From positions 59,148,001-59,212,000 of the forward strand of contig OZ024748.1 in the NCBI GenBank assembly GCA_964016885.1: DNA of 64,000 nucleotides, read 5' to 3'. The translations under genes and the position numbers were made by a program. The DNA comes from Eledone cirrhosa. Taxonomy: Eukaryota. This document shows, in pieces, positions 39,901 through 42,900 of this stretch. Below the pieces are notes generated by a model. It saw only the letters and a program-made list of their open reading frames with translations. It was not told where the DNA came from and did not search any database. The first letter of the stretch is position 1; every line of letters begins with the position of its first letter.

Positions 39901-42900
39901 GGTAATGGAGTAATTATATATTGTGTTATTCACTTTCTAATTAAATAGCTCTGTTCTATACATAGAGCACTCGATTTTCCTTTGCTTTTTCTTCGGAAAT
40001 ACTTAACATATATATATTTATTTATTTATTTTACCTCTCTCCTCTACGCAACCCACAAAAACAACAGAAGAAATAATAAGAAATAAGATAGATTGAGGGG
40101 ACGGGCGGGTTGGAATTAGAAAAAATGTCTTTAGATAAAAATAACAGGTCCATTCATGTTGACATCTCTTGCAAAACTATTGATATATATATATATATAT
40201 ATATAATATTCCCTTTTTTCTCTTTTTTCTAAATAAAAGATTCATTGAACAAAAGATGTTAATCGAAGTTGAAAGATTCGTCCAACGACAATATCCACAC
40301 CACGAAAGCCAGTGTCCGCACCACGAAAGTCAGTATCCGCACCACGAAAGCCAGTGTCCACACCACGAAAGCCAGTATCCACACCACGAAAGCCAGTGTC
40401 CGCACCACGAAAGTCAGTATCCGCACCACGAAAGCCAGTGTCCGCATCACGAAAGTCAGTATCCGCACCACGAAAGCCAGTGTCCGCACCACGAAAGTCA
40501 GTATCCGCACCACGAAAGCCAGTGTCCGCACCACGAAAGTCAATGCCCGCACCACGAAAGTCAATGCCCGCACCACCAGAATCAGTATTCACACTACCAA
40601 ACAACAGATTCCGGAACGACACGAAGCAATGGTTGTCCACATGAAGCGGGAAAGAAGTCGTTATTGGAGGACGGTTTACTCTGCCAGTTATTACAAGAAA
40701 ACAAACTTGATAAACAAGAAATAACTACCATCATCAAAGACATCATCGCCTCTTCAGTTTTCACAGTAAATATCTTAAATTTTATTTTATTTTATTTTAT
40801 TTTATTTTATTTTATTTTATTTTATTTTATTTTATTTTATTTTATTTTATTTTATTTTATTTTATTTTATTTTATTTTATTTTATTTTATTTTATTTTAT
40901 TTTATTTTATTTTATGTTTGTCTTGATTAGGCCGAAAGATTGGTAATATCGGTAGATTAGTAATATCGATAAATTGGTATTATCGATAAATTGGTAATAT
41001 CAGTAGATTAGTAATATCGATAAATTGGTAATATCGATAGGTTTGTAATATCGATAAATTGGTGTTATCGATAGATTGGTAATATCGATAAATTGGTAAT
41101 GTCTGTAGATTGGTAATATCGGTAGATTGGTAATATCAATAGATTGGTAATATCGATAAATTGGTAATATCGATAGGTTTGTAATATTGATAGGTTGGTA
41201 ATATCGATAGGTTGGTAGTATCGATAGATTAACAATATCAATAAGTTGGTAATATAGATAAGTTAGTAATATTGATAGATTGGTAATATCGATAGGTTGG
41301 TAATATCGGACAAAATACTTTGTGGTATTTAGTTACGTCTGTTTACATTCTGAGTTCAAATCCCGCTGAGGTCAACTTTGTCTTTCATCCTTCTGAGGTC
41401 GATACAATAAAGTACCAGCTAAATATTGGGGTCTATATCATAGACTTTCCCCATCCCCCAAATTGTTGTTCTTGTGCCAATATTAGAAAGAAATATTTTC
41501 ATCTTAATCAACATTCTTTGTGAAGGGGCGTGGTTTAGTGGTTATAGAAATAAATTTGCAATCGTGAGTTGCAAGTTCAATTCCCGGACCGAAACAAGAT
41601 ACTTTATTTCACGTTGTTCTTTCTGCCAGGAGTTGCGACCGGTAGATAGTAAGTACCGGTCGCTCTCCGGCAGGTTTTTTGGTCGTGCCCTTGGCAGTGG
41701 AGACTTCTGGTGTCCTTGGCCCTAGGGCTACCTCCCTACTCACCACCATAGGTGCCGAGCTGGCCAACCGCAGTTGTGAGCCTCGCGAGATGAAATGGCG
41801 CATCTCCCATACCATCCTCCGGGGAAACGCCTCCTCAATTCTGTCCGCCGGGGCTGTGAGGCAGCCACATATGGGACCACATTTGCTCACAATACAGAGA
41901 GATGGGGAGGACGAGAGAGGTGGAGGCGATCGTAGCTGGAGTTCTATAGATGCTAATGAAGAACAAACGTTAACTGATTATTTTGATTTCGTTTTTATTA
42001 CGTATTATCAATGCCAAAACCAATAGAAACATTGTTTCCTTGGTCCAATTTGATGAGTTACACCCCACGCGGTAATCAAGCGAGGTCTGGGATCTCGTCG
42101 ATCGTTAAAAAAAAGAAAACCGTTCTATATTAAGACGCTAAATTAGTAGAATCGTTAAGAATTAATTACCTTCAGATTTGCTCCGGCCCACGTTCAAATC
42201 CCGCCCTGATTTAGTCAATCACATCGACCACAATAGGAACTTTTTTTTTATCTCTGGTACTTGCGTCTCTCTCTCCCTTCTTTTTCTTTCCCTTTCTCTC
42301 TATCCCTCCTCTCTTTCTCTCTCCCTTCTTTCCCTCTCTTTCTCTAACTACCTCTCCTCTCTTTCTCTCTCCACCTCTCCTCTCTTTCTCTTTCCATTCT
42401 CTCCCTCTCCGTGTGACAGATGTGTGACAGCTACTATGTGGTCGTTCGATTTGCTAGAAATAACAGACCCATATCCTATTTATAGTACTAAACGTGATAG
42501 CAACAACAACAATAACAACAAAAAAACAACAACAATAGCGGCAACAACAACTAGAACAGGAACAATATCAACACTGCAACAATAGCAACAATAACATTGG
42601 CTATACAGCAACAACAGCATCAATAGCAACAACAACAAATATTGTTCTTGATTGTGTCAGCTAAAGGTGTTTGACCTCACTCTACCTCACTCTATGTTTA
42701 AATGTCAGTGGACAGTGGTGGTGGTGGTGGTGGTGGTAGTAGTGGTGCTAGTTGTGATGGTGTTGGTGGTAGTAGTGGTGGTGATGGTAGTGGTAGTGGT
42801 GGTTGTGGTAGTGGTAGTGGTGGTGGTTACAGTAGTTGTAGTAGTAGTGGTGGTGGTAGTAGTAGTGACGGTAGTAGTAGTAGTAGTAGTAGTAGTAGTA

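Follow-up and report, generated by a model that had tools for sequence, protein, structure and literature searches.

A gene for a mitochondrial-clan cytochrome P450 in Eledone cirrhosa carries in its fifth exon a tandem array of fourteen 21-nucleotide units, which encodes a His- and Cys-rich heptad repeat. The gene lies on the forward strand of contig OZ024748.1 (assembly GCA_964016885.1), within the 64,000 nucleotides between positions 59,148,001 and 59,212,000. This whole stretch is called the window here, and all coordinates are counted from its first base. The gene model around the array is intact. The array is absent from the orthologues of four other octopods (Octopus bimaculoides, Octopus sinensis, Octopus vulgaris and Argonauta), and a Cys-Pro-His (CPH) motif, its likely seed, is present in all of them. 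We lean towards the view that the array is a tolerated, lineage-specific, in-frame coding minisatellite of exon 5 that has grown from this ancestral CPH motif. The original prediction, which was made from the letters of the window alone, had named a tolerated coding variable number tandem repeat (VNTR) as one of its options. That option has gained support because the orthologues are free of the array and because the genome is repeat-prone: in the AT-rich window, 217 rows reported by Tandem Repeats Finder (TRF) cover 26,310 of the 64,000 bases, and the intronic share is 8,106 of 26,603 bases.

Structure and reading frame of the array

The array occupies positions 40289..40582 on the forward strand and consists of 14 units of 21 nt with the translation Q(Y/C)PHHES. 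In the P450 frame it gives 98 residues, including 28 His, 8 Cys, 6 Tyr and 13 Glu; the unit number and the His and Cys counts first proposed are borne out by the direct reading. Like a coding VNTR, it is a tandem array in frame within one exon, with a unit length that is a multiple of three. The 14th unit reads QCPHHQN and resembles the QCPHHTN of the orthologues. It is followed by a degenerate 15th unit, QYSHYQT (40583..40603, +), which extends the array to the end originally assigned to it. The array was reported by TRF at a period of 21 (13.5 copies, 90% matches, score 433) and at a period of 42 (7.1 copies, score 496), both far above chance with a cut-off of 50. Tyr units and Cys units take turns up to unit 12, forming a higher-order period of 42 nt, and the unit-to-unit identity is 0.889 at lag 1 and 0.939 at lag 2. 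Units 1-13 comprise seven unit types in an ordered pattern, and the single amino acid variant among them is the exchange of Cys and Tyr. The array has a pI of 6.06 and a computed charge of about -14 at pH 7.8.

BLASTN detected no second copy of the repeat unit elsewhere in the 64-kb window. In a database search with exon 5, the best 150 of 689 hits all aligned through the repeat region, and the 20 inspected among these were mostly unrelated heptad repeats. None of these best 150 fitted the P450 profile and none had at least three CPH motifs; a conserved family of the array repeat was therefore not seen. Exon 5 matched no family in Pfam or NCBIfam, its residues 15-140 had no usable match in the ESM Atlas, and Rfam gave no match at gathering score across 38800-42500.

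The differences among the units provide a weak hint, read from the sequence, that the array might be translated. In the P450 frame, five of the six variable columns of units 1-13 are synonymous; the chance of such a bias is P = 0.004-0.06 over six mutation models. With unit 14 added the count becomes 6 of 9 (P = 0.008-0.15), and with the degenerate unit 15 it becomes 6 of 13 (P = 0.07-0.54). Conserved coding sequence is found on both sides of the array, all within one exon, and BLASTP aligns each flank with the orthologue (E 1e-9 and 1e-24). The other five reading frames were rejected, since the conserved flanks are joined by the P450 frame only and 0-3 of the six columns are synonymous in the others.

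The loop between helices G and H and its probable ancestral motif

The octopod orthologues are XP_014788703.1, XP_029647028.1, CAI9735170.1 and GAB1610196.1, from three Octopus species and Argonauta. They bear the automatic labels "probable cytochrome P450 12a5, mitochondrial" or "cytochrome P450 27C1-like". Among 351 candidates in a comparison of exon 5 with longer proteins, two were the proteins of O. bimaculoides (553 residues) and Argonauta hians (554 residues), both without the repeat, and the former clusters with those of O. sinensis (553 residues) and O. vulgaris (575 residues). The extra length of O. vulgaris CAI9735170.1 is N-terminal, its first 100 residues or so are unlike those of the other orthologues, and exon 1 of this public model looks mispredicted. 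A search for shorter fragments, made with orthologue residues 200-480, yielded two of 202 candidates, and these were distant P450s. Compared outside the loop, the window protein is identical to O. bimaculoides at 463 of 528 positions (87.7%), to O. sinensis at 466 of 528 (88.3%) and to Argonauta at 441 of 528 (83.5%), and to O. vulgaris, whose model has a different N-terminus, at 81.0%. In a tree of 14 rows, made up of the window protein minus residues 302-392 and 13 of 32 collected proteins, it falls within the octopod group (support 95/94), next to the three Octopus species with weaker support (87/82). None of four relative-rate tests was significant (chi2 0.43-3.13, threshold 3.84).

An alignment across cephalopod orthologues had been proposed at the outset as a check on the insertion. 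Where the array is inserted, the orthologues read (Q/R)CPH(H/Q), orthologue residue 303 being the Cys of (Q/R)CPHH, and a second Cys-Pro (CP) dipeptide follows 14-15 residues after the first in all four (residues 303-318 region). The counterpart of the first CP in the window is the 14th unit (40565) and that of the second is GCPH (40631..40642, +, with its CP at 40634); at the same place Octopus reads GCPH and Argonauta VCPM. From this comparison it appears that the array was amplified from a CPH motif already present in other octopods, a point overlooked by the original prediction. With such an ancestral seed the His/Cys content is explained, and no special origin is needed for it. An alternative alignment (A2), in which the repeat was misaligned, was set aside. 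The window protein and the octopod orthologues are otherwise collinear and share the same atypical helix I and the same two CPs in the loop, whereas the orthologues are devoid of the array.

The length of the loop is informative as well. Between fixed anchors, the segment linking helices G and H measures 10-26 residues in 23 of 27 aligned relatives, 36-37 in the four octopods and 137 in the window protein. These lengths suggest that the loop grew in two steps, and the range among the relatives suggests that the site varies freely in length. The structure model is that of the O. bimaculoides orthologue; it was built from 27 sequences and has a predicted local distance difference test (pLDDT) score of 80.7 and a predicted template modelling (pTM) score of 0.82. 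A P450 fold is predicted for this orthologue, which is 88% identical to the window protein outside the loop, and its best fold match is CYP24A1 (TM score 0.90 on the target, E 1.9e-27). The model has a helix at 271-302, a coil at 303-324 and helices at 330-337 and 342-373; the N-terminus aside, pLDDT below 50 is confined to 303-324. Their order and the CYP24A1 match are the basis for naming the helices G, H and I, and the placing of the repeat in a surface loop between G and H, as first proposed, is supported by the model and this match. When exon 5 was folded alone without an alignment, it gave two flanking helical parts, with the repeat as coil at pLDDT 39-46.

A long insertion in this region has a precedent. 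Insect CYP4G enzymes are active P450s that carry an insertion of 44 residues between helices G and H, according to the accessible text of 10.1101/2025.11.13.688110, whereas that of PMC1761136 places the insertion between F and G instead; that of 10.1101/742619 contained nothing about it. A long insertion in CYP303A1 could not be confirmed from the literature searched. The original statement that no P450 has a comparable insertion does not hold as regards position, given the CYP4G case. As for the sequence type, exact-word searches with partial coverage of the literature brought up no mention of a P450 with a His/Cys tandem repeat, nor of this cephalopod P450 family. In both cases a long insertion occupies this region of the P450, which in CYP4G is active. 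CYP4G differs in being a microsomal member of the CYP4 clan with an insertion that marks the whole subfamily, while the window array is lineage-specific, about 100 residues long, nearly perfect as a tandem and rich in His and Cys. Membership of CYP4G was rejected, since the top sequence and fold matches are to the mitochondrial clan and only the insertion place is alike.

A plausible course of events would be as follows. An octopod ancestor would have lengthened the G-H loop by about 18 residues and gained two CP motifs. The lineage of E. cirrhosa would then have amplified the first of these, first as a 21-mer and later as the 42-nt Tyr/Cys pair, the array growing by slippage or unequal crossover with a period of 21 that preserves the frame. 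The translated product would be a predicted disordered G-H loop of 137 residues, tolerated without a selected job. We infer that the array is included in the mRNA and that the enzyme folds and is active. At the least, the gene offers a traceable coding repeat of 100 residues that comes from a visible ancestral motif in a compact, slowly evolving enzyme. The repeat-free orthologues, at 88% identity, are natural controls, and the effect of the expanded loop could be tested by a loop swap.

Selection, splicing and other explanations

Several observations weigh against the array being a merely tolerated minisatellite. Both CPs are conserved from Octopus to Argonauta, whereas the intervening 11-12 residues have one or two identities; this conservation within a loop that otherwise diverges means that the seed may have a function. 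The synonymous bias, drawn from very few events, would also fit selection on the peptide, of which a purely neutral spacer has no need. With Argonauta as the outgroup, the unique changes in the window protein and in Octopus number 30 vs 19 and 29 vs 17, a difference that is not significant. The comparison rests on four named octopods, and close sister species lie outside this sample. The exon 5 model has a mean pLDDT of 50.3 and a pTM of 0.18, so the predicted disorder of the repeat is weakly based.

Some of these points suit a different explanation, selected amplification of a ligand motif, which we consider unlikely although it is the best of the competitors. The octopod CP/CPH loop would be a metal, heme or thiol-redox sensor on the matrix face, multiplied in this lineage into a high-capacity His/Cys loop that might buffer Cu, Zn or Cd or regulate the activity or turnover of the enzyme. 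The persistence of the two CPs in all four named octopods and the synonymous bias in units 1-13 are in its favor. So are some features of known heme regulatory motifs. The accessible text of PMC10377097 places CP heme motifs mostly where an interhelix loop begins, with an aliphatic residue upstream in about 87%; that of PMC6356037 reports that a negative net charge of the nonapeptide inhibits heme binding and a positive one favors it, and lists both Cys and Tyr as heme ligands. The first CP of the orthologues, the first loop residue after helix G, has the placement described for heme motifs and a net charge of +2 or +3, although it has no hydrophobic neighbors, and the Cys-Tyr swap in units 1-13 would exchange one listed ligand for another.

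The amplified units fit these rules less well. Exon 5 contains nine CPs, all in predicted coil, and a CP followed by His in an interhelix loop is shared with the known motifs. However, the nonapeptides around the eight repeat CPs have a net charge of -2 (seven) or -1 (one), with His counted as neutral, and no hydrophobic residue; the downstream CP has a net charge of 0 and one hydrophobic residue. The favored first-CP position reads Tyr-Pro in the window, with a net charge of 0. The initial suggestion that heme binds through the CP dipeptides of the repeat is weakened by these acidic units, and the heme idea would suit the ancestral first CP better, because that CP is basic and well placed whereas those of the array are acidic. 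Selected amplification is further opposed by the absence of the array from the four octopods, by three further relatives at 52-58% identity that share the helix I of the family but have neither CP, and by the edge unit, which has decayed mainly through amino acid changes.

Chains rich in His, Cys and Glu bind Zn, Cu or Ni as a matter of general chemistry, and His-rich metal-binding loops occur in histidine-rich glycoprotein, Plasmodium HRP2, SlyD and HypB. For the array, with its 28 His, 8 Cys and 13 Glu, binding of Zn, Cu or Ni in vitro is probable. Metal binding by the loop is plausible, and if the array is a tolerated minisatellite it would be incidental. The array resembles coding VNTRs and His-rich loops in its in-frame tandem expansion and its dense His with Cys and Glu, but no sequence relationship to His-rich metal-binding proteins was found in the searches made. 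The boldest scenario, to which we give little credence, is that octopods added a Cys-Pro-His ligand loop to a P450 without a catalytic acid and that this lineage amplified it under selection to a metal- or redox-responsive arm of 100 residues. If it were true, minisatellite expansion would have given a P450 a metallothionein-like sensor or buffer of its own. Should the loop bind metal or heme and be selected for it, the enzyme would have an integral arm for regulation or buffering, and the literature searched contained no description of such an arm on a P450.

It is improbable that the array is mostly spliced out as an internal intron, or that both forms are made. The repeat had been said to appear obligatory, the AG ending at 40607 being out of frame. 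This AG is indeed out of frame with the exon 4 donor, but the obligatory status is not established, since, on paper, an internal splice could preserve the frame. Four donors AAA|GTCAGT lie within the array, after 40328, 40412, 40454 and 40496, and each shares its phase with the AG at 40607. Compared with the consensus MAG|GTRAGT they fit at seven of nine positions, whereas the eight annotated donors of the gene fit at 6-8; they at least equal six of these eight. A hypothetical GT..AG intron from 40329 to 40607 (40329..40607, +, 279 nt) would be in frame and would leave a loop of 44 residues (137 minus 93), near the 36-37 of the orthologues. Its acceptor is without a T tract and has three T and nine pyrimidines in the 17 bases upstream, compared with 8-13 T and 12-16 pyrimidines at the eight annotated acceptors; that of exon 5, at 40240, is good, with nine T in its tract. 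A further candidate acceptor, the AG at 40626, agrees in phase with the exon 4 donor and has two T in those 17 bases, and its use would delete the end of helix G. It is on account of the poor acceptors at 40607 and 40626 that skipping is rated so low. The synonymous bias in the coding frame would also be unexpected for intron sequence.

Public reads agree with the assembled array at its edges. The junction between the 5' flank and the repeat is bridged by contigs of two of three public runs (40215-40321 for X1 and 40215-40327 for X2), and that between the repeat and the 3' flank (40513-40780) by contigs of all three, with no letter differing from the assembly. The three runs represent one sample, perhaps the source of the assembly itself, so this support is not independent. 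It is from the assembly that the count of 14 units is taken. No listed contig covers the entire array and X3 has no coverage at the 5' junction, neither of which counts as evidence, and the summed read depth within the array is not usable as a copy number. A search for RNA runs listed these three runs of the one sample and no RNA data set with the sequence, which speaks neither way about expression. A recent private or mildly harmful allele, a gene copy falling silent or an assembly miscount is the least probable explanation: the single sample, the near-identical units at lag 2, which point to a young array, and the window branch's small surplus of changes, which is not significant, are consistent with it. 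Against it stand nine canonical exons without a stop or frameshift, an intact ExxR, PxRW and heme Cys and the 88% identity to Octopus; the ordered unit types argue against simple assembler stutter, and both junctions are bridged.

The host gene and its surroundings

The gene model comprises nine exons on the forward strand with GT-AG at all eight introns, agreeing phases and no internal stop, and its translation confirms the 654 residues first given for the protein. Exon 1 (30687..30921) contains the start codon and a presequence-like N-terminus and is collinear with the orthologues; by composition only, without a predictor, the first 40 residues include four Arg or Lys, no Asp or Glu and nine Ser or Thr. 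Exon 2 (33425..33650) has a weak match to Pfam p450 (E 0.082), and exon 3 (37777..37967) is supported by the orthologue alignment. Exon 4 (39107..39308) encodes the stretch from predicted helix F through the first half of helix G and ends at the donor CAG|GTAAGA in phase 2. The 526 nt of exon 5 (40240..40765) encode the end of predicted helix G, the repeat loop, helix H (LLCQLLQ, 40676..40696, +, placed by the structure models) and the start of helix I. The remainder of helix I, helices J and K and ExxR are found in exon 6 (47650..47822, Pfam p450 E 1.8e-15), which is followed by exon 7 (50370..50448), placed by the gene model. Exon 8 (54830..55036, Pfam p450 E 2.1e-14) contains PxRW and the heme-thiolate motif (54965..54994, +), and the coding part of exon 9 up to the TAA stop (59129..59254) agrees with the C-terminus of the orthologues. 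The characteristic P450 motifs are intact: FxxGxRxCxG and PNRW in exon 8 and ETLR across exons 6 and 7.

The closest relatives and structures are mitochondrial-clan P450s, which places the protein in that clan. The best solved structure by sequence is CYP24A1 (3k9v, E 8e-51), with CYP11A1 also among the best, and CYP24A1, CYP11A1 and CYP11B are the best solved-structure matches to the family by sequence and fold. Vertebrate mitochondrial P450s differ in their identity of only about 24% and in their short G-H loop. No described function was found for any of the four octopod orthologues.

Helix I of the window protein reads ASSVFT|LRS (40748-40765 + 47650-47658), with Phe at the acid position. 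Most P450s have an Asp/Glu-Thr acid-alcohol pair in this helix, according to the accessible text of PMC9260165. This canonical pair is lacking in the window protein, and the repeat is not the cause. Phe-Thr is found in the window protein and in 7 of 27 aligned relatives, these being all the close ones, Asp or Glu in 12 and Gln, Asn or Ser in 8; given these last eight, it is not unusual in the mitochondrial clan for the acid to be lost. CYP24A1 reads AAVETT and ancestral CYP11A1 AGGVDTT, compared with ASSVFTL in the window group, and in the limpet and snail relatives the sequence is GGVDTT and AGVDTT. The alignment suggests that Phe at the acid position predates the repeat and that proton delivery may be non-standard. 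The host family is of interest in its own right, as an uncharacterised mitochondrial-clan P450 group in which Phe replaces the catalytic acid. In five hymenopteran mitochondrial-clan P450s, helix I reads LGVQA and has neither acid nor alcohol.

The introns contain further repeats. A minisatellite with a period of 16 (27.5 copies, 30958-31394) lies in intron 1, just 3' of exon 1, and another with a period of 17 (22.1 copies, 40933-41308) in intron 5, just 3' of exon 5. For the segment 40065-40172 in intron 4, thousands of contigs match at 90-99% identity and the summed depth reaches the hundreds of thousands; this interspersed element of very high copy number lies some 70 bases before the exon 5 acceptor. 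A stop-free frame of 126 residues (41646-42023, +), LAVETSG...LRGNA, had no Pfam match at E 0.1, and we take it to recall the endonuclease end of some non-long terminal repeat (non-LTR) retrotransposons. A dispersed repeat, recognized by the same translated string in chance frames, was found near 41296, 43641, 45412, 50028, 53613, 53804 and 61591, in introns and downstream of the gene, and is probably a short interspersed nuclear element (SINE)-like element.

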